Positions 49,946 to 59,449 of a stretch of 64,000 nucleotides of DNA are shown here, piece after piece. How positions within the stretch are numbered: position 1 is the first letter of the stretch; each line of letters starts with the position of its first letter. The notes beneath the pieces are model-generated. The model had not been told where the DNA came from. It saw only the letters and a program-made list of their open reading frames with translations, and made no database searches. The stretch lies in assembly GCA_963846575.1 (NCBI GenBank), contig CAWJWJ010000001.1:576001-640000 (forward strand). Reading direction: 5' to 3'. This stretch comes from an uncultured Nitrospiraceae bacterium. GTDB taxonomy: Bacteria; Nitrospirota; Nitrospiria; Nitrospirales; Nitrospiraceae. A program made the translations under genes and the position numbers.

Positions 49946-50416
49946 GCCGCCCTCCGACAGTACGCCGGGAATGTACTCGACGATGACCTCCAGGACGCGG
50001 ACCAGCCATCCGGCGCAAGAGCCGCCCGGCCGGACGGACCGGCAGCGCGCCGCGGAATCAAGCCTGCCGCTGCGGAGCCGTGTGGATCGCGGAGCATCGG
50101 GCGGGAACCCCGCCGTTTCACCACGGCGGGGATTTCCTCCATCGGTAGGCCCTGCAGCAGGGCGTGGTCGTATCCTGATTCCAAGTCCACCCCCTCGCCC
50201 CTGCAGCCGCAGCCTCGTGACCGTTCCAGAGAAAGCAAAACCAGTCCTGTGCGGCGCCATTCACAGGGTATCGTCCACTCACCCACCTCCACAGAGTAAC
50301 AACTAACCGGGTGGTATGATATCCCGCCGCACGGCCGTGCCGGGTTTTTCTCTCGCCTGGTGCTCATCCACCCCTGCCGGAGAATCCGCCTGTTCTTCCG
50401 TAACAACTTCATTTTG

Positions 50417-50445
50417 TTGACCCTTTCGGGAAAGACGCCTAGACT
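50417..50445 (+). promoter_or_regulatory. Sigma70-type promoter of the nfeD-SPFH operon
   Basis: TTGACC-17 bp-TAGACT. Confidence 0.55.
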
Positions 50446-50497
50446 TTGCCGGTATCGATCATTCATTTCTCCACGATTTCTCTACGCGAGCACACGA

Positions 50498-50932
50498 ATG
50501 GCCTGGTGGATGTGGGCATTTCTGGGATTGGTCCTGCTGGGCGTCGAAATTACGACTCCCGGCGGGTTCTACATTTTCTTCTTCGGACTCTCGTCGCTCG
50601 TGGTGGCGGCGCTTGCGGGATTCGGGATCACTGAAGCGGAATGGGTCCAGTGGCTGCTCTTTTCGGTGATGTCCGTCGCGTCGCTGTTCGTGTTCCGCGG
50701 CCCGCTGCTACGTATGATCAAATCACATGAGGTATCAGGACCGGCGATCGACACCATGATCGGAGAGATCGCCATCCCGCTCGAACCGTTGGCGCCCGGC
50801 AGCACCGGGAAAGCGGAATGTCGCGGTACGGCCTGGACCGCCCATAATGCCGGGCCGGTCGGTCTGGCGAAGGGACAGCGCAGTCTGGTCGATCGGGTCG
50901 AGGGCCTCGCCCTGTGGCTCAAACCGGAATAG
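50498..50932 (+). CDS. NfeD-like (YbbJ) membrane protein
   Basis: WWMW…E..TPG TMs plus a C-terminal OB domain (G..WTA). Directly upstream of an SPFH gene. Confidence 0.88.
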   Translation: MAWWMWAFLGLVLLGVEITTPGGFYIFFFGLSSLVVAALAGFGITEAEWVQWLLFSVMSVASLFVFRGPLLRMIKSHEVSGPAIDTMIGEIAIPLEPLAPGSTGKAECRGTAWTAHNAGPVGLAKGQRSLVDRVEGLALWLKPE

Positions 50933-50965
50933 GCTGAGGGAGTTCTCAGGATGGAGGAATCAGGT

Positions 50966-51904
50966 ATGTCAGGTGGATTGATGGTCATGGTCGTCCTGGC
51001 GTTCCTGGTGGTGCTGATCATCGCCAAGACCGCCCGCATTGTCCCGCAACAAAGCGCGTATGTGGTCGAACGATTGGGTCGGTACTCCCGCACCCTGAGT
51101 GCCGGGTTCCACATCCTGATTCCCTTCATCGACGCCGTCCAGTATAAGCACTCACTCAAAGAGACCGCTGTCGATATTCCTGAACAGATCTGCATCACGC
51201 GCGACAACGTGCAGGTCGGGGTAGATGGCATCCTCTACATCAAAGTACTCGACCCGCAACGGGCGTCCTACGGCATCAACGACCATCGCTTCGCCATTAC
51301 CCAGCTGGCTCAGACCACGCTGCGAAGCGAGATCGGCAAGATCGATCTCGACCGGACCTTTGAGGAACGCACCAATATCAACCTGCAGGTTGTCAACGAA
51401 CTCGACAAGGCGTCAGAGCCCTGGGGCATCAAAGTGCTCCGCTACGAAATCAAAAACATCACGCCGCCCAAAGACATTTTGAACGCCATGGAAAAGCAGA
51501 TGCGGGCGGAACGGGAAAAACGTGCCGTCATTCTGGCCTCGGAAGGAGAGCGGGACGCCGCCATCAATCAGGCGGAAGGGGTAAAGCAACAGGTCATCAA
51601 GGCCTCGGAGGCCAGAAAGCAGCAACAAATCAACGAAGCGGAAGGTGCCGCGGCGGCGATCACGGCCATTGCCGCCGCCACGGCAGAAGGCCTGAGAAAG
51701 GTGGCCGAGTCGACTCAAATCCCCGGTGGGTACGAAGCCATCCAACTACGGGTCGCGGAGCAATACATCGGCAAGTTCGGCGAGCTGGCCAAGACCAGCA
51801 ATACCCTGGTCCTGCCGGCGAATGTCGCCGATGTGGGCTCGATGTTGGCGCTAGCCATGAACATGATCACGAAACGTTCCTCCCCGACGCCGCCTGCGAG
51901 ATAA
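50966..51904 (+). CDS. SPFH/stomatin-like protein (QmcA type)
   Basis: IVPQQSAYVVERLGRY, ITRDNV, AQTTLRSEIG, MEKQMRAEREKRA. Confidence 0.93.
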   Translation: MSGGLMVMVVLAFLVVLIIAKTARIVPQQSAYVVERLGRYSRTLSAGFHILIPFIDAVQYKHSLKETAVDIPEQICITRDNVQVGVDGILYIKVLDPQRASYGINDHRFAITQLAQTTLRSEIGKIDLDRTFEERTNINLQVVNELDKASEPWGIKVLRYEIKNITPPKDILNAMEKQMRAEREKRAVILASEGERDAAINQAEGVKQQVIKASEARKQQQINEAEGAAAAITAIAAATAEGLRKVAESTQIPGGYEAIQLRVAEQYIGKFGELAKTSNTLVLPANVADVGSMLALAMNMITKRSSPTPPAR

Positions 51905-51921
51905 GCAGCGGTTCCACCCGT

Positions 51922-51950
51922 TTGACAGTGGCTTGACGGTTCCCTACAAT
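51922..51950 (+). promoter_or_regulatory. Sigma70 promoter predicting a leaderless gmhA transcript
   Basis: TTGACA-17 bp-TACAAT, 7 nt before the ATG, no SD. Confidence 0.7.
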
Positions 51951-51957
51951 TCCGCCC

Positions 51958-52536
51958 ATGAAAGATTTCGTCATCAAGGCGTTCGATGAAAGTGCCGACG
52001 TCAAGCGGCGCTTCGCCCGGGACCACGCCGACAAGATCGGTGAGGTCGCGCAGGTCATCGGGCAGGCCTTTCGAGAGGGACGCAAGGTCCTGCTGTTCGG
52101 CAACGGCGGCAGTGCGACCGACGCCGCACACATGGCGGCCGAATTCGTCGGTCGATACAAGCGGGAACGCGCTCCCTTACCGGCCATTGCTCTCGCCACC
52201 GACATCGCCGCCATCACCTGCATCGCCAACGACTACGGCTTCGAAGCCCTTTTCGCCCGTCAGGTGCTCGCGCACGGCCAGAAAGGCGACGTCGCCATCG
52301 CCATCAGCACGAGCGGCAACTCCCCCAATGTCCTCAAGGGTATCGAAGCGGCCAGATCTCTCGGCCTGACGACGATTGCCTGGACCGGCGGTTCGGGCGG
52401 CAAGCTGGCCGGCCTTGCAGACTATGCCTTTATCGTGCCCTCGACCGTTACCGCCCGCATTCAGGAGAGCCATATCACGTTGGCCCACGTGCTTTGCGAA
52501 CTGATCGAGGACCAGGTTCTTGCCAACCCGGCGTAA
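51958..52536 (+). CDS. gmhA: D-sedoheptulose 7-phosphate isomerase
   Basis: GNGGSATDA.H, NDYG, STSGNS, RIQE.H. Confidence 0.96.
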   Translation: MKDFVIKAFDESADVKRRFARDHADKIGEVAQVIGQAFREGRKVLLFGNGGSATDAAHMAAEFVGRYKRERAPLPAIALATDIAAITCIANDYGFEALFARQVLAHGQKGDVAIAISTSGNSPNVLKGIEAARSLGLTTIAWTGGSGGKLAGLADYAFIVPSTVTARIQESHITLAHVLCELIEDQVLANPA

Positions 52537-53518
52537 GCGCACCAGTCACCCTGCCGTCCCTCCCGCGATCATCCAGCCGATAGATACATCGCGCCTGAAG
52601 ACCTATCCGCTCCAGCGACGTCACAGCAAAGTCCAGGTGGCACACTTTGCCAAGGCCTGGCCCGTCGGCCGGTCGTTGAGTCACTTTCTCGACTCGCTTC
52701 CCGACATCCTGGCGGTCAAAACGTTGCGCGAAGTGGCGCAGGCCATCGCGAAGGCCCATCGGCGCGGTCGCCCCGTCATTGTGGGCATGGGCGCCCATGT
52801 GGTGAAGGTGGGGCTGGGGCCGCTCCTGGTGGACCTGATGGAGCGCGGCATCGTCACGGCTCTCGCGATGAACGGCGCCGTGATCATCCACGACTTCGAA
52901 CTGGCCTTCATGGGGCATACATCCGAGGAGGTCGACGCGGAAATCGATTCGGGACGATTCGGCATGGCGGAAGAAACCGGTCGCATGTTGAACGAGGCCA
53001 TCTCGCTGGGCATGAAGGAGGGCCAGGGCCTGGGCGAATCACTCGGGCTCTACATCAATCGCCAAAAACGGCAGTTTCCGCACCGCGCCACCAGCCTGCT
53101 GGCGACCGGAGCGCGCCTGGGTATTCCCGTCACGGTCCATGTGGCCGTCGGGACCGACATCATTCACATGCATCCGTCTGCCGACGGTGCCGCAATCGGT
53201 GCCGGATCACTGCTCGATTTTCGCCGCCTCGCGGCCGTCGTCTCCGCGATGGAAGGCGGAGTCTACCTCAATCTGGGCTCCGCGGTGATCCTACCGGAGG
53301 TGTTCTTGAAAGCCGTCTCCCTTGGACGCAATCTCGGCCACCCGCTCACGAACATCACGACCGTGAATATGGATTTTCTGACGCACTACCGCCCCATGAC
53401 CAACGTCGTGCGCCGTCCTACGCAAAAAGGCGGCAAGGGCTATGCGTTGACCGGGCATCACGAGATCATGGTGCCGCTATTGGCGGCCGCTGTGCTTGAG
53501 GAATTGGCGGGCCAGTGA
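52520..53518 (+). CDS. Conserved protein with a deoxyhypusine-synthase-like fold
   Basis: GMGAHVVKVGLGPLLVDLMERG..TALAMNGA.IIHDFE, GSAVILPEVF. Overlaps the end of gmhA. Confidence 0.7.
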   Translation: MPTRRKRTSHPAVPPAIIQPIDTSRLKTYPLQRRHSKVQVAHFAKAWPVGRSLSHFLDSLPDILAVKTLREVAQAIAKAHRRGRPVIVGMGAHVVKVGLGPLLVDLMERGIVTALAMNGAVIIHDFELAFMGHTSEEVDAEIDSGRFGMAEETGRMLNEAISLGMKEGQGLGESLGLYINRQKRQFPHRATSLLATGARLGIPVTVHVAVGTDIIHMHPSADGAAIGAGSLLDFRRLAAVVSAMEGGVYLNLGSAVILPEVFLKAVSLGRNLGHPLTNITTVNMDFLTHYRPMTNVVRRPTQKGGKGYALTGHHEIMVPLLAAAVLEELAGQ

Positions 53519-53564
53519 CGCGGACTTCCCGATAGCGCCTGCCGTCGCAGACACGGGAGAAATA

Positions 53565-54197
53565 GTGACCACCACCCTGCCCACGACGGAACTGCTGCTC
53601 GCCAGCTGGGCGGATCTCAACTCCCGCTACTTTCGTGGCGCCTTGCCTCCGATTCGCATCGAATGGAGCCGTCGACTCACCTCATCCGCCGGAATGTTCG
53701 TCTGCCGCATGGGCCCCCGGCACGCCGTGGCACCGCTAACCGCTGACGACAGCCGGCGGCGTTGCATCAAACTTTCGGCGATCCTCCTGCATAAACAGGG
53801 GTCGCACGACGCACACGAGACCTTGACGACGCTGGCCCACGAAATGATCCATCAATGGCAATACGATATTCTGAAGCGTCGCCCGAATCATGGCCGCGAT
53901 TTCCGGCGCATGATGGCGCGGATGAATGAAGAAGGCCTTGGCATTACGATCTACCACTCACTGGGCAGGGAAGTGGCCGCTTTGGCCAAGTATGCCTGGC
54001 GCTGCCAGCGTTGCGGCTCGATCTACCATCGCCAGCGCCGGAGCATTCAACCGCGGCGGCATTCCTGCGGTGCCTGTCGAGGACCGTTACGCGAACTGAC
54101 GGTCGCGCAGGACGACTCGCGGCCGACAGTGGAACCGGCACCCGTCGCGACCGGGGCCACCGGACCGCAACTGATCCTGCCCTTCCGCGTCCCGTAG
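53565..54197 (+). CDS. SprT-like zinc metalloprotease
   Basis: WSRRLTSSAG, HEMIH, HGRDF, CQRC…CGAC. GTG start after ggaga. Confidence 0.9.
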   Translation: MTTTLPTTELLLASWADLNSRYFRGALPPIRIEWSRRLTSSAGMFVCRMGPRHAVAPLTADDSRRRCIKLSAILLHKQGSHDAHETLTTLAHEMIHQWQYDILKRRPNHGRDFRRMMARMNEEGLGITIYHSLGREVAALAKYAWRCQRCGSIYHRQRRSIQPRRHSCGACRGPLRELTVAQDDSRPTVEPAPVATGATGPQLILPFRVP

Positions 54198-54205
54198 GAC
54201 CATCC

Positions 54206-55399
54206 ATGTCCGCCCGATGGCTTCGACAAATTCTTTTCGGCGACATCGATGCGATGTTTGCTTCGGCGGCTGTCTTGTCGGATCCCTCCCTCGCCGGGAG
54301 ACCGATCGCCGTCGGTGGTCCGCCCCCTCGCGGCATCATCGCGGCAGCCAGTTACGAAGTGCGCCGGTACGGGGTCCATTCCGCCATGCCGACCATGACA
54401 GCCCTCCGGCTTTGTCCCGGACTTGTGTTAGTTCCACCCGACCGGCCGCTGTACGACCGCCTGCATCACGAACTCCAGCTGGTGACGGACCGGTTTTTCC
54501 CTGAAACCGAATGGACCAGCGTCGACGAGTTTTATACCGACACCACCCGGCTCCAAACACGGCATCCCGATCCTCACGAGCTGGGTCATGCGCTCAAGGC
54601 CGGCATCCGCCGCTCGACCGGATTGACCTGTACGGTCGCGGTGGCGTCGGGCAAAGCCGTCGCGAAGATCGCGGCCGACACGCATAAGCCTGATGGCCTG
54701 GCGGTGATCGAGCCGGGCACTGAGGCGGCCTTCCTGGCTCCGTTGCCGGTTCGCTCCCTTCCCGGGATGGGACCCAAATCCACCGAGTCAGTCGAACGCC
54801 TGGGGATTCGGGTCGTCGGTGATCTGCTCGCGCCGCGCTTCGAATCGTCGCTCGCTCGCCTGTTCGGCACGCGTTTCGCGACGCTCCAATTACTGGCCCG
54901 GGGAATCGATACCGATCCTGTCGTGGCGGACCGCGAGGCGAAAAGCGTGAGCCATGAGACGACCTTCGATGAGGATACCAATGATCCGGCCCTGCTGGAA
55001 CCGATTGTCCATGGCTTTCTGGAGCAACTGACGCATGATCTTCGAATGGAAGGGCTGGCCGCCGGTTCGTTCACCGTCAAACTTAAGGACGCCCGGTTTC
55101 GCATCACGACGCGGCAACGGAGATTCTCCACGCCGGCAAACTATGATCCGGCGATGTGGCCGAGCATCAGGCTCGCCCTCACCGAGCTGATGCAATCTGG
55201 ATCACGATACCGGCTGGTAGGTCTGGGACTGTCGGATCTGACCACGGCCCCCGTACCGCTCTTCGACCGGCGGCAACGCGACGCCGTCGCTGTTCTCGAT
55301 CGCTTGATCGAACAGCACGGTTCCGGCGTGGTTCGTCTGGGAGGACTCCCGGCTGCGGGCGAAAGTAAGAAGAAGCGGGACCATCACCGGAAACCGTGA
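54206..55399 (+). CDS. dinB: Y-family DNA polymerase IV
   Basis: DIDAMFAS, AASYEVR, SVDE, AKIA…KPDG, HhH PGMG, little finger (KSVSHETTF; RLVGL). Confidence 0.92.
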   Translation: MSARWLRQILFGDIDAMFASAAVLSDPSLAGRPIAVGGPPPRGIIAAASYEVRRYGVHSAMPTMTALRLCPGLVLVPPDRPLYDRLHHELQLVTDRFFPETEWTSVDEFYTDTTRLQTRHPDPHELGHALKAGIRRSTGLTCTVAVASGKAVAKIAADTHKPDGLAVIEPGTEAAFLAPLPVRSLPGMGPKSTESVERLGIRVVGDLLAPRFESSLARLFGTRFATLQLLARGIDTDPVVADREAKSVSHETTFDEDTNDPALLEPIVHGFLEQLTHDLRMEGLAAGSFTVKLKDARFRITTRQRRFSTPANYDPAMWPSIRLALTELMQSGSRYRLVGLGLSDLTTAPVPLFDRRQRDAVAVLDRLIEQHGSGVVRLGGLPAAGESKKKRDHHRKP

Positions 55400-55485
55400 G
55401 CTGCCCATAGCGGGGAGCGAGAGAACCATTGCTTCAAGAGGCACCCTCCCCCTAAGATAAGGTTTTTCGAATTGGCATCGATTCT

Positions 55486-55968
55486 ATGCACTCAAAAGTC
55501 GTTATGCGCCCACAACTGGTCTCCCTCCTGGGAGAACCTCGCCGTAAACAACAGGTCCTGGTCTTTACCAACGGCTGCTTCGACCTCATGCACATCGGCC
55601 ACACGCGCTACCTGCAGGCCGCCCGCGACCTTGGTGATCTGTTGATCGTGGGCGTCAATTCGGACGCATCCGTACGAACCTTGAGCAAGGGCGCCGACCG
55701 CCCCATCGTGCCGGACGATCAACGGGCCGAAGTCCTCGCCGCGTTGTCCTGCGTCGATTATGTGGTCATTTTTCCAGAGCCAGATCCCGGTCCGCTCATC
55801 GCGGCCCTCCAGCCCGATATTCTCGTGAAGGGCGGAGACTGGCCGTTGGATCGAATTGTGGGCCGGGAGACGGTCGAGGCTCGAGGCGGACGTGTCCAGA
55901 CGATTCCTCTCATCCCCGGTGTCTCGACAACGACTTTGTTACAGCGGATTCGTTCCACCACAGCGTAA
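55486..55968 (+). CDS. rfaE2: D-glycero-beta-D-manno-heptose 1-phosphate adenylyltransferase (RfaE domain II)
   Basis: [30 protein letters not shown]. Confidence 0.93.
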
Positions 55969-55975
55969 GGACCTC

Positions 55976-58900
55976 GTGCCGCCCATCGCGCCATCGCATC
56001 TCATCAATTGGCTCACTCCTGCGCGGGACGCCCTTCAGACAGGCAGTAGCAAGCCCTGCCTGGTGGGTTTGCACGGCTCGACGGCCGGCTTTGGCCTGGC
56101 GCTCCTGACCCAGAACGCCACGAACCAACCCCTCGCCGATCGGTCCTGGCTGGTGGTCGCTAAGACCGACGATGAGGCGGAACGCCTCTATGGCGATACG
56201 CTGTTTTTTCGAACCCTCTGCGGGTTATCCGGCGACGATCTGGCACTCTTCCCCAAGTGGGAAACCCTGCCCTATGAATCGACCGTGCCCCATATTGATC
56301 TGGTGGCCCGCCGCATGCAGACCTTGCAACGCCTCTGCACCACGTCGCGCACGGTGCTGTTCACGTCGATGCCGGCACTCATGCAGCGTGTCCTCCCCGC
56401 GCTCGTCTTTAGCGACGCCGTGCTCCACTTCGAACCGAACGGGGATCTGGAACGGGAGGTCCTGGTGTCCAGACTGTTGCGCTTGGGGTACCGGAAGAGT
56501 TCCGTGGTGGAAATTCCCGGCGAGTTCAGCATCCGCGGCGGGATCGTCGATATTTATTCGACGGCCTATCCCGACCCGCTACGAGTCGAATTCCTCGGCG
56601 ACACCATCGAGTCGCTCCGGTTCTTCGATCCCGCCACCCAGAAATCCACCGACAAGGTCAAGCAGGCTTGGGTATTGCCCGCTCGTGAGTTGATTCGTCC
56701 GGAGGAGGCCCCCGACGCCTTAGCGCCCCTGCCGGCAGACGCCGAATGGCACGCGCCTTCTGTCTACGGCGCGATGGACAGTCTGCTGGATTATTTCCCC
56801 CGTCCGCCGGTGGTCGTCCTGGATCAACCGAACACGCTCAAGGACCAGAATGCGGCATGTTGGCGGGCTATTGAAGAAGGGTATCTCCGTCATGAAGACC
56901 GGACGGACCCGAATCCCTACCCGACTCCCGATCAACTGTATGTCACATGGGATCAGATTGTCGACGCGACTCATGGCTACGCCACGCTCGCCTTGGAACC
57001 GGTCACGGCGCCGGATGCGACCTGGGACCCCCTCGTCACCTGTCCGGCACAAACGCCGGCGAGCGTCGGGCTCGGCCAACGCGGCACCGCGTTCAGTCAT
57101 ACGCTGGAAGTTCTCGACCGGCTGCGCGAAAGCGGGCCCGTCGTGCTCGTCGCCCGCAGCCAGGGCCAGGTCGGTCGCCTGCTCGCGCTCTTCAGCGAAC
57201 ACGATCGCCCCGCCGTTGAATGGAAGCCCGCGGCGCTCTCGGCCGGCGGCGCACAGAAGGCCCCCTTCTCCGTTCTCAACGGCGAGGTCTCAGCCGGTTT
57301 TCTCTCCCCGGATCTGCGCCTCGTCGTGCTCACGGAGGAAGAACTCTTCGCCAAAGGCACTCGCCACAAACCGCAGGCCAAGAGCAAGGCCGCCACGTTT
57401 CTCTCCTCGCTGGAAGATCTGAACGTCGGCGACTATGTCGTGCACATGCAGTATGGCATTGCGAAGTATCAGGGACTTCGCCGCCTGTCGGTTCAGGACT
57501 TTGACAGTGACTTCCTGGTGTTGGAGTTTGCCGGAACGGACAAACTTTATGTGCCCCTCGATCGGCTGAACCAGGTCCAACGGTATGCGGGAGCCGACGC
57601 CCATGTGCCCCGCCTGGATCGGCTGGGCGGCACCAGCTGGGCGAAGACAACCGCGCGGGTCAAAAAAGACATCGAGGAGATGGCGCACGAGCTCGTCGAT
57701 CTCTATGCCAACCGGGAACTGGTCCACCGAACGTCGTACGGCAAAGACAGCATGCTGTATCACGAGTTCGAGGCGGCCTTCGAGTATGAGGAAACGCCTG
57801 ATCAACGTCGGGCCATTGAAGACATCGCGAATGACATGGCCTCCACCAAACCGATGGACCGCCTCGTCTGCGGCGATGTGGGGTACGGCAAGACCGAGGT
57901 GGCCATGCGGGCCGCTTTCAAGGCAGTGGAAGAAAATCGCCAAGTCGCCGTGCTCGTCCCGACCACGCTGCTGGCGCACCAGCACTACGACAACTTTGCG
58001 GAACGGTTTGCGCCCTTCCCCACCCGTGTCGCCCTCCTCTCCCGTTTTCAATCCCCCAAGGAGACCAAAGCGATTATCAAGGACACTGCGGCGGGCGTCG
58101 TCGATGTGTTAATCGGCACCCACCGTCTTTTGCAGAAAGACGTGCAGTTCCGCAACCTCGGACTGGTGATCATCGACGAGGAACAATGGTTCGGCGTGAA
58201 ACACAAGGAACGTCTCAAACAATTGCGCACCCAGGTCGACGTCTTGACCCTGACCGCCACGCCGATTCCCAGAACCCTGCAAATGACCATGGCGAGCGTG
58301 CGCGACCTTTCGATCATCGATACGCCTCCCTCCGGCCGGCTGGCCATTCGCACACAGGTCTTACGATTCAGTGAGAAGGCCATCCGGGAGGCGATCTTGC
58401 GCGAACTCGGCCGCGGCGGCCAAACCTACTTCGTCCACAATCGGGTGGAAACCATGGAGCGGATGGGGGCCTGGCTCCAGGAACTCGTGCCGGAGGCTCG
58501 CATCGTGATGGCCCACGGACAGATGGACTCCAAACCGCTGGAAGCCGTGATGCTGAAGTTTTTCCATCGGGAGGCCGATATCCTGATCGCCTCCGCCATC
58601 ATTCAATCCGGCCTGGATGTGCCGACCGCCAACACCATCATCGTCAATCGTGCAGACGCGTTCGGACTGGCCCAGCTGTACCAGCTGCGCGGGCGGGTCG
58701 GCCGGGGCGGCGAACAGGCCTACGCCTACTTTCTCGTGCCGGACGAGGGCTCGCTCTCGGATGATGCCCAGAAACGCCTGACCGCCATTCAACAATTTAC
58801 CGAGTTGGGATCCGGCTTCCGGATTGCGGCAGCGGACTTGGAGATCCGCGGTGCGGGCAACTTGCTGGGCAAGCAGCAGTCGGGGCATATCGCGGCTGTG

Positions 58901-59449
58901 GGCCTCGATCTGTACCTGCAAATGGTCGAACAGGCCGTCCAACGGCTGAAAGGCCAGGTGGTGGAGGAGGAACCGGATCCCACGTTGCGCCTCAGCGTCT
59001 CGGCGTTCATTCCTGAAGATTACGTGGTGGACAGCCACCAGCGCCTGTCGCTGTACAAGCGTCTGTCTTCCTGCGGGCAACTCGGGGACTTGGCGTTAAT
59101 GCATGGTGAAATTGAAGACCGGTACGGACCGCCTCCCGATCCCGTTGAACGTCTCTTCGAGATGATGCAGATCCGTCTTCTGGCCAAGCAGCTTCGTTTG
59201 AGTTCCGTCGTCGAACAGCCTCACGCCGTCGTGATCACCTTCGATCCCAAGGCCATGGTTCCTGAGGCCGCGGTGCAAGCCTTGATGGACCGGTACAAGA
59301 AGCGGTTGCGTTTTCTGTCTCCCCTCTCCTTTGAACTCCAGATGCCGCATGAAGACTGGAGTTTGGTCTTTCCGGAACTCAACGCAACCTTGCAAACCCT
59401 CCTGGTCTGTGGTACCAACAGACAAGGGCCACAAACGGGCTCGACCTGA
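55976..59449 (+). CDS. mfd: Transcription-repair coupling factor
   Basis: UvrB-like module (RGGIVD), RID domain, GDVGYGKT, DEEQ, TATPIPRT, QLRGRVGR, DLEIRGAG, C-terminal TRCF domain. Confidence 0.97.
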   Translation: MPPIAPSHLINWLTPARDALQTGSSKPCLVGLHGSTAGFGLALLTQNATNQPLADRSWLVVAKTDDEAERLYGDTLFFRTLCGLSGDDLALFPKWETLPYESTVPHIDLVARRMQTLQRLCTTSRTVLFTSMPALMQRVLPALVFSDAVLHFEPNGDLEREVLVSRLLRLGYRKSSVVEIPGEFSIRGGIVDIYSTAYPDPLRVEFLGDTIESLRFFDPATQKSTDKVKQAWVLPARELIRPEEAPDALAPLPADAEWHAPSVYGAMDSLLDYFPRPPVVVLDQPNTLKDQNAACWRAIEEGYLRHEDRTDPNPYPTPDQLYVTWDQIVDATHGYATLALEPVTAPDATWDPLVTCPAQTPASVGLGQRGTAFSHTLEVLDRLRESGPVVLVARSQGQVGRLLALFSEHDRPAVEWKPAALSAGGAQKAPFSVLNGEVSAGFLSPDLRLVVLTEEELFAKGTRHKPQAKSKAATFLSSLEDLNVGDYVVHMQYGIAKYQGLRRLSVQDFDSDFLVLEFAGTDKLYVPLDRLNQVQRYAGADAHVPRLDRLGGTSWAKTTARVKKDIEEMAHELVDLYANRELVHRTSYGKDSMLYHEFEAAFEYEETPDQRRAIEDIANDMASTKPMDRLVCGDVGYGKTEVAMRAAFKAVEENRQVAVLVPTTLLAHQHYDNFAERFAPFPTRVALLSRFQSPKETKAIIKDTAAGVVDVLIGTHRLLQKDVQFRNLGLVIIDEEQWFGVKHKERLKQLRTQVDVLTLTATPIPRTLQMTMASVRDLSIIDTPPSGRLAIRTQVLRFSEKAIREAILRELGRGGQTYFVHNRVETMERMGAWLQELVPEARIVMAHGQMDSKPLEAVMLKFFHREADILIASAIIQSGLDVPTANTIIVNRADAFGLAQLYQLRGRVGRGGEQAYAYFLVPDEGSLSDDAQKRLTAIQQFTELGSGFRIAAADLEIRGAGNLLGKQQSGHIAAVGLDLYLQMVEQAVQRLKGQVVEEEPDPTLRLSVSAFIPEDYVVDSHQRLSLYKRLSSCGQLGDLALMHGEIEDRYGPPPDPVERLFEMMQIRLLAKQLRLSSVVEQPHAVVITFDPKAMVPEAAVQALMDRYKKRLRFLSPLSFELQMPHEDWSLVFPELNATLQTLLVCGTNRQGPQTGST

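Follow-up and report, generated by a model that had tools for sequence, protein, structure and literature searches.

The 64,000-nucleotide stretch analyzed here (the window; assembly GCA_963846575.1, contig CAWJWJ010000001.1, positions 576,001 to 640,000, from an uncultured Nitrospiraceae bacterium) carries sprT, a gene for a SprT-like zinc metalloprotease that ends in a predicted binding motif for the beta sliding clamp (DnaN), and directly behind it dinB, the gene for DNA polymerase IV. We read SprT as a clamp-tethered, probably DNA-activated, general protease for DNA-protein crosslinks that would have no need for DinB, and give this reading a probability of about 0.48. Its protease and clamp part is well supported by computation, namely by the protease fold, the intact zinc ligands, the basic C4 zinc ribbon, the conserved motif on a linker of variable length, the predicted docking on DnaN, and the independence from dinB. 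The crosslink function is reasoned by analogy with the eukaryotic protease SPRTN, and a module with DinB is partly supported. In the mechanism that we propose, the flexible tail would tether SprT to the clamp, and clamps left at stalled primer ends or gaps would recruit the protease. DNA binding by the ribbon, through the loop that contains R156, would switch it on, SprT would then cut proteins crosslinked to or trapped on the template, and any available route (bypass, excision, or recombination) would finish the process. The scheme draws on SPRTN biology as described in excerpts of PMC9240642 and PMC7511601, with further background from excerpts of PMC7782752, PMC3814617, PMC5098910, PMC5983568, and bioRxiv 10.1101/2020.10.27.357855.

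SprT belongs to the SprT-like family by domain search and by alignment. Pfam SprT-like (PF10263) matched with an E value of 1.8e-18 and 66.8 bits against a gathering score of 25.6, Zn_ribbon_SprT matched with 28.8 against 28.1 bits, and H92, E93, H96, and H109 are invariant in the alignment. By sequence, the closest solved structure is that of human SPRTN (6mdx; E value 1.4e-11, query residues 7-155), and the segments that an earlier note on this DNA had named as parallel to the SPRTN SprT domain do align with it. The AlphaFold model of SprT has a mean predicted local distance difference test (pLDDT) score of 86, and Foldseek returned two matches at E <= 0.001, both of them SPRTN. A wide structural search, covering the comparison with SPRTN and Wss1 that the same note had proposed, gave Z scores of 14.1 for SPRTN (root mean square deviation 2.1 Å over 110 residues), 10.2 for selecase, and 7.0 for Wss1. 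SPRTN is thus the closest fold, as would be expected of an SPRTN orthologue, within a thin comparison set, as GCNA and ordinary bacterial SprT structures were absent from the lists in which SPRTN was matched.

The likeness to SPRTN (PDB 6mdw and 6mdx) comprises a SprT domain with HEMIH and HG elements (about 33% identity over the 110 superposed residues), a zinc-binding subdomain after the protease in which an Arg aligns with R185, and a sliding-clamp motif on a disordered C-terminal tail, which is a PIP box in SPRTN and QLxLxF in Nitrospira SprT. The differences are substantial: SPRTN has 489 residues and SprT 210, the C4 ribbon of SprT stands in place of the longer zinc-binding domain of SPRTN, and SHP, UBZ, and the Y179/W197 pocket are missing from SprT, which falls outside the SPRTN clade. 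Past the last ribbon Cys, SprT has only 39 more residues and no further Pfam domain, so that the long C-terminal region with SHP, PIP, and UBZ was not found. From its sequence features, namely a GCNA-type C4 ribbon and the lack of the Y179/W197 pocket and of UBZ, SprT is not an SPRTN orthologue, and by analogy it may work like SPRTN. Like Nitrospira SprT, GCNA/ACRC has a C2C2 zinc finger with identical spacing behind its SprT protease, and most next-best matches are GCNA-like, but Nitrospira SprT has neither the long acidic intrinsically disordered region nor the HMG box that complete the GCNA/ACRC architecture (disordered region, protease, C2C2 finger, and HMG box). E. coli YggI/SprT (PRK04860) and PRK04351 share the Pfam SprT-like and zinc ribbon domains, HExxH, HG, and an equivalent of R156; however, Nitrospira SprT scores far under the NCBIfam cut-offs of both (23 against 175 and 38 against 113 bits), and YggI, at 21% identity, has no tail and no clamp motif.

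A search of 1.84 billion representatives returned Nitrospirales-type proteins first and then dropped to about 1e-16. Past the drop came mostly long GCNA-like or SPRTN-like proteins, labels assigned from architecture and motifs, together with about a dozen short prokaryotic or phage-like ones. In a 59-row tree, a 100/100 branch separates the GCNA-like rows from the node that holds the Nitrospirales and SPRTN-like rows, and E. coli YggI sits on a long branch in an uncertain position. The key node of this tree speaks neither for nor against a eukaryote-to-bacterium transfer of sprT. A phage origin found no match among 50,697 phage records; searches elsewhere gave one weak haloarchaeal plasmid match and only partial matches in 43 IMG/VR loci (best E value 5e-7), and the ESM Atlas returned SprT-like clusters only.

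The ribbon region is strongly basic, with 10 Lys or Arg and one Asp or Glu in residues 141-180, and the spacing of its four Cys is as in GCNA. R156, which is invariant in the alignment, aligns with R185 of SPRTN, the loss of which lowers SPRTN activity according to an excerpt of PMC7534798. A role in DNA binding is suggested by the basic ribbon and by the invariance of R156, and this argues against another explanation of the same protein, that of a regulatory protease that uses the clamp to cut non-covalent clients such as stalled polymerases, replication-control factors, or phage or toxin proteins. The clamp motif and the protease fold would fit a protease of this kind equally well, SprT lacks the base-binding pocket of SPRTN, and its next structural match is the minigluzincin selecase, a protease of narrow specificity. 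A review also speculates that SPRTN degrades stalled polymerases (PMC7511601, in part). On the other hand, the closest characterized relatives act on crosslinks, as far as the excerpts of the literature cited here go, and no candidate client travels with sprT. We hold regulatory proteolysis to be distinctly unlikely.

SprT ends in QLILPF followed by RVP and the stop codon, and this hexamer stands behind a flexible linker, just as the earlier note had read it; pLDDT falls to 54-56 in residues 181-200 and to 54-65 in residues 181-210. The conservation of the motif, which the same note had suggested checking, was borne out. Among the best 120 homologues (one of which is SprT of the window), 117 had a recognizable ribbon, and the tails of 113 of these hold Q[LIVMF]x[LFM]x[FL], whereas 500 shuffles averaged 1.2 such tails and never exceeded 5. 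The ranking of this set relied on similarity to the whole query with its tail. A fairer basis is offered by 78 Nitrospirales-type loci that were ranked against a cyanobacterial query without a tail. The hexamer occurs in 60 of its 77 complete loci and the first four positions in 68, while nine lack even a loose motif; in the 60 loci, the linker between ribbon and motif varies from 23 to 58 residues, and position 4 is evenly split between Leu and Phe (30 loci each). The pattern behind both counts is wider than the published definition of the clamp motif, Q-phi-x-[L/M]-x-[F/L] (PMC11139829, in part), as it allows Phe at positions 2 and 4. QLILPF of the window fits the published form, as expected of a beta-clamp client. 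As a background, the hexamer occurs within the last 15 residues of 6 of the 3728 crude open reading frames (ORFs) of this genome, a set from which sprT was dropped owing to a longer frame that overlaps it. The hand-picked alignment was excluded from the motif counts, and the motif sets overlap in part and consist of kin that are not independent. In one locus (L003, G116:C1:3030982-3034572), the sprT frame extends 15 codons past the motif and overlaps the dinB start. Two proteins of this genome, presumed to be a uracil-DNA glycosylase and a radical-SAM repair enzyme, carry QMDLF and QLELF, respectively, at their C-termini.

With known clamp clients such as E. coli Pol IV (RQLVLGL) and Hda, SprT shares the motif consensus, the flexible terminal position, and the predicted pocket, while the clients named in the available parts of PMC11139829 include no protease. 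A bacterial clamp-bound SprT was not found in the full-text literature, a search whose coverage left out most subscription papers. In a 2020 article (DNA Repair 88:102822), Reinking, Hofmann, and Stingele reportedly treat how these proteases evolved, which may be relevant to novelty.

The docking of SprT on DnaN, which had been proposed for modeling, was predicted in the canonical pocket. SprT residues 178-210 folded in three runs with DnaN of the same genome gave a complex score of 0.75, while the best of three controls reached 0.01; the score mark is reached by 116 of 157 solved pairs and by 2 of 215 mismatched pairs. The runs share at least 61% of their contacts, and the partner pLDDT is at least 47. 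In the model, SprT residues 199-208 contact DnaN residues 176-181, 252-257, 330, and 370-376. By local sequence, these DnaN residues correspond to positions 172-177, 242-247, 320, and 360-365 of the E. coli pocket, as given in an excerpt of PMC11139829. The predicted complex supports a likeness to clamp clients rather than binding as such.

A similar motif occurs at the opposite end of a second protease family. Other Nitrospirota have a distant PF10263-positive protease without a ribbon, in which a hexamer lies within the first 40 residues in 99 of the best 120 homologues and in 105 of 120 when pentamers are allowed (shuffles of the pentamer-inclusive pattern gave a mean of 3.5 and a maximum of 9). 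The source names of this family include Thermodesulfovibrionales and Deltaproteobacteria. It was found in 32 of 151 genomes and in none of 26 Nitrospirales genomes, and never together with the C-terminal-motif family in one genome. The N-terminal motif abuts the first helix and could have a structural role instead; if it is real, the two families suggest that SprT-fold proteases became tethered to the clamp repeatedly. One member (L198) adjoins mfd, and another (P0286) is listed as fused to a Peptidase_S24 (LexA-type) domain, a fusion that could be real or an assembly artefact.

The gene pair itself is not peculiar to one strain. As the earlier note had stated, sprT ends 8 bp before the ATG of dinB, and dinB stands directly behind sprT in 69 of the 75 genomes that have this dinB, both genes lying between the GSU2086-family gene and rfaE2 and often 6-30 bp apart. 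Of the other six genomes, four have the gene at or near a contig end, judged by coordinates, and two, of one genus, have dinB on another contig; one of these two shows no dinB within 1.9 kb downstream of sprT. This adjacency, together with the Gln missing from the DinB clamp site in all 51 loci, favors a dedicated module in which clamp-tethered SprT cuts and this DinB then bypasses the remnant. A 2008 study by Minko, to go by its title, reportedly concerns the bypass of DNA-peptide crosslinks by the DinB family, which would count for such a module. In eukaryotes, SPRTN proteolysis precedes bypass (PMC7511601, in part).

Several results speak against a dedicated module, which we regard as unlikely. 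No match to this dinB at 1e-60 was found in 35 of the 108 genomes with sprT, some of which are incomplete and some of which have a distant DinB at 1e-40 to 1e-48, and this dinB is rare in whole genera (0 of 5, 0 of 4, and 1 of 10 genomes). The motif is kept in 17 of 20 loci without an adjacent dinB, as against 48 of 54 with one. The sister family has sprT next to a tadA-like gene, with the protein ending in QLxFxF in four of six loci, and four of five of its genomes gave no match to PF00817 (Y-family polymerase). On the tree, adjacency changes at least five times (twice as required by starred branches), and the motif does not change along with it; an independent-pairs test of adjacency against motif had two to five pairs, which puts significance out of reach. 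Of 70 loci, 60 have gmhA or the GSU2086-family gene upstream of sprT; ordinary synteny is thus preserved no less than dinB adjacency. No sprT-dinB pair was found outside Nitrospiraceae, that is, in 6 sister-family loci, beside 23 dinB genes of other Nitrospirota (sprT within 1.5 kb), or in 80 cyanobacteria-like metagenome loci, many of them short. SprT also has no extra domain to hold DinB. Thus, dinB looks like a frequent but dispensable neighbor of sprT in Nitrospiraceae, presumably co-transcribed with it, and not an obligatory partner, and a looser functional link between the two, drawn from one lineage, is possible. Of the replication-coupled module proposed from the sequence, the SPRTN-like fold, the conserved motif, the predicted docking, and the adjacency in more than one strain stand; the dedicated partnership with DinB has weaker support, and the supply of clamp access to DinB by SprT is not supported.

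The strongest form of that proposal was that SprT possibly bridges DinB to the clamp. DinB does have only APVPLF at its own motif site, as the earlier note had stated. The model for this is ImuB, which lends clamp access to DnaE2. The DinB site has L[FY] in 51 of 51 loci and Gln in none, and the catalytic Asp motifs are intact in the rows of its orthologues. Among 23 DinB-like proteins of other Nitrospirota, eight have a QxPLF- or QLALF-type motif at the same place, and in 15 the Gln or the whole motif is missing, with no sprT beside them. For clamp binding, an LF moiety can suffice by itself and Gln is dispensable (PMC11139829, in part); DinB probably reaches the clamp by its own weak LF anchor. 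The genome also has its own lexA-like-imuB-dnaE2 cassette, in which the ImuB-like protein carries QCNLF and the last gene is presumably dnaE2. With the ImuA-ImuB-DnaE2 mutasome, the pair thus shares only the idea of a neighbor that lends clamp access; SprT is no polymerase-like adaptor, DinB looks catalytically intact, and the cassette is separate. An adaptor role of SprT was rejected because its motif is independent of dinB, being kept without an adjacent dinB and where PF00817 was not found, because DinB retains its L[FY] anchor, because Gln-less DinB proteins are common without sprT, and because of the separate imuB cassette. We consider it extremely improbable, and it takes up only a small part of the probability of the dedicated module.

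SprT is widely kept within its order. It is present in 108 of 121 Nitrospiraceae genomes (83 of the 86 high-quality ones) and in six of seven sister-family genomes, none of 125 other genomes of the phylum matched a Nitrospira SprT query, and the homologues at 70-74% identity bear Nitrospira source names, from which we take this genome to be that of a Nitrospira; sprT is near-core in Nitrospirales. When the unpublished genomes G006, G053, and G076 are excluded, the counts are 106 of 118 for sprT and 67 of 72 for dinB adjacency; G076 contributes one row to the DinB orthologue alignment data. The closest relative outside Nitrospirales is SprT of Synechococcus metagenome-assembled genomes (MAGs; L108:2943-5555 and L109:3534-5543), which has no tail and lies head-to-head with radA, followed in L108 by an alkyl-guanine methyltransferase gene. 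A cyanobacteria-like SprT clade (L301-L380) has, instead of a clamp motif, a conserved Pro/Leu-rich peptide at the N-terminus. A PF10263 search across cyanobacteria gave mostly weak matches, which we take to be YgjP-like, and is uninformative on the motif.

Regulation by a LexA-like repressor was considered for the pair. The palindrome TGTAAC-N5-GTTACA, a putative operator, occurs in perfect form only before two LexA-like genes of this genome (G000:C2:948976 and G000:C2:2377287; L076 and L033/L077), whose products have an XRE-type helix-turn-helix, as shown for the L033 copy. The second gene heads the imuB-like/dnaE2-like cassette, divergent from a uvrB-like gene, and the perfect palindrome was not found before recA; from the sequence, the two genes and the palindrome are possibly a small non-canonical damage regulon. 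Near sprT, the best match has four mismatches here and at least two in all 78 relatives, and SOS control of sprT-dinB is unsupported, as an operator-like site was not found.

The following observations weigh against our interpretation. In the 59-row tree, the 13 SPRTN-like rows group together at 100/100 without any of the 15 Nitrospirales rows, and the Nitrospirales, the SPRTN-like rows, and two prokaryote-like groups meet at one multifurcating node with no sister placement. The segments with Y179 and W197, the aromatic single-stranded DNA pocket of SPRTN (PMC7534798, in part), are gaps in the Nitrospirales alignment rows. R156 is not diagnostic, since the R185-equivalent Arg occurs in E. coli YggI too. 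The motifs with Phe at position 4, half of the 60, fall outside the published [L/M], and the nearest bacterial relatives have no clamp motif (0 of 80 cyanobacteria-like metagenome loci, many of them short, and 0 of 2 Synechococcus MAG loci). Solved structures include many motif-clamp complexes, so the predictor may owe the complex score to having memorized these. No site with three or fewer mismatches to the LexA-like palindrome lies in positions 50001-56000 of the window. A protein that we take for a PurF-like amidophosphoribosyltransferase (G000:C2:647192-648622) ends in QLGLF, and clamp-type tails are therefore not confined to repair proteins. Finally, the sprT-dinB pair is embedded in a run of heptose-synthesis genes (gmhA, the GSU2086-family gene, and rfaE2).

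The last two observations, together with the sister-family sprT beside a tadA-like deaminase gene and the nine loci without even a loose motif, would fit a tail that binds a partner other than the clamp or acts as a degron, the protease having a role outside DNA metabolism, for example in heptose or lipopolysaccharide synthesis. Against such a role stand a freely linked motif with an invariant Gln and hydrophobic residues at positions 2, 4, and 6, the contacts predicted in the DnaN pocket, the same motif at the opposite end of the distant SprT-like family, and the motif being kept where sprT moves away from the heptose genes. No signal peptide was noticed in SprT by eye, no predictor having been run. 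We judge this alternative very unlikely, and clamp-tethered crosslink proteolysis remains the reading that we prefer.

The features of the locus are collected in the table below. The GTG start codon of sprT is preceded by GGGAG at 53555-53559, and its stop codon is TAG. The predicted promoter is likely the start of a gmhA-GSU2086-sprT-dinB transcript; the number of such sites in 50200-56200 (2 against 1.4 in shuffles) is by itself not significant. As the site ends seven bases ahead of the gmhA start codon, its position suggests a leaderless transcript. The gene order after dinB is rfaE2 and then mfd, so that mfd does lie two genes downstream, as noted earlier; its link to the module brings no further information, since the order rfaE2-mfd comes after sprT whether dinB is there or not, and mfd was rejected as a part of the module.

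Table. Features of the sprT-dinB locus (window positions) and members of the N-terminal-motif family (locus positions)
Feature	Position	Strand	Basis or remark
sprT, SprT-like zinc metalloprotease, 210 amino acids, isoelectric point about 10.6	53565..54197	+	Pfam, alignment, AlphaFold model
Catalytic HEMIH (residues 92-96) and third zinc ligand H109	53838..53891	+	Invariant in alignments; matches SPRTN HEMIH
C4 zinc ribbon C147, C150, C168, C171, with Arg-rich loop	54003..54077	+	Pfam, alignment
Flexible linker, residues 181-201, unconserved, of varying length	54105..54167	+	Low pLDDT, locus comparison
Predicted hexameric beta-clamp-binding motif QLILPF, residues 202-207	54168..54185	+	Motif conservation, modeled docking
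dinB, DinB/DNA polymerase IV, 397 amino acids, catalytic Asp motifs intact	54206..55399	+	IMS, IMS_HHH, IMS_C (Pfam)
DinB clamp-motif site APVPLF, residues 348-353, Gln-less, LF-anchored	55247..55264	+	Directly after IMS_C
Predicted sigma-70-like promoter, 11 of 12 consensus matches, just before gmhA	51922..51950	+	
gmhA-like, sedoheptulose-7-phosphate isomerase	51958..52536	+	TIGR00441, 202 bits, slightly below cut-off
GSU2086-family protein	52520..53518	+	NF052581, E value 5.5e-135; longest ORF, true start uncertain
rfaE2, heptose-1-phosphate adenylyltransferase domain	55486..55968	+	TIGR02199, above cut-off
mfd, transcription-repair coupling factor	55856..59449	+	Longest ORF; true start probably later
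N-terminal-motif SprT-like members	L193:2609-3334, L196:2965-3711, L199:2711-3394, L200:566-1255, L202:2940-3908		

Bacterial handling of crosslinks is put down to excision, recombination, and possibly Lon in the available parts of sources that include PMC9240642, and dedicated crosslink proteases have been described for eukaryotes. If our reading is true, a 210-residue protease with a zinc ribbon and a clamp peptide would be a minimal bacterial counterpart, and two questions would become testable, namely whether proteolysis of crosslinks takes place at the bacterial fork and which role the unexplained bacterial SprT proteins play. Taken further, bacteria might own replication-coupled crosslink proteases, SprT folds might have gained a clamp motif more than once in parallel to the PCNA box of SPRTN, and SprT and the Gln-less DinB of Nitrospiraceae might cut and then bypass on two pockets of one clamp, a broader picture that we consider doubtful. 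Our narrower reading, if true, would also make the clamp tethering of these proteases convergent between bacteria and eukaryotes.

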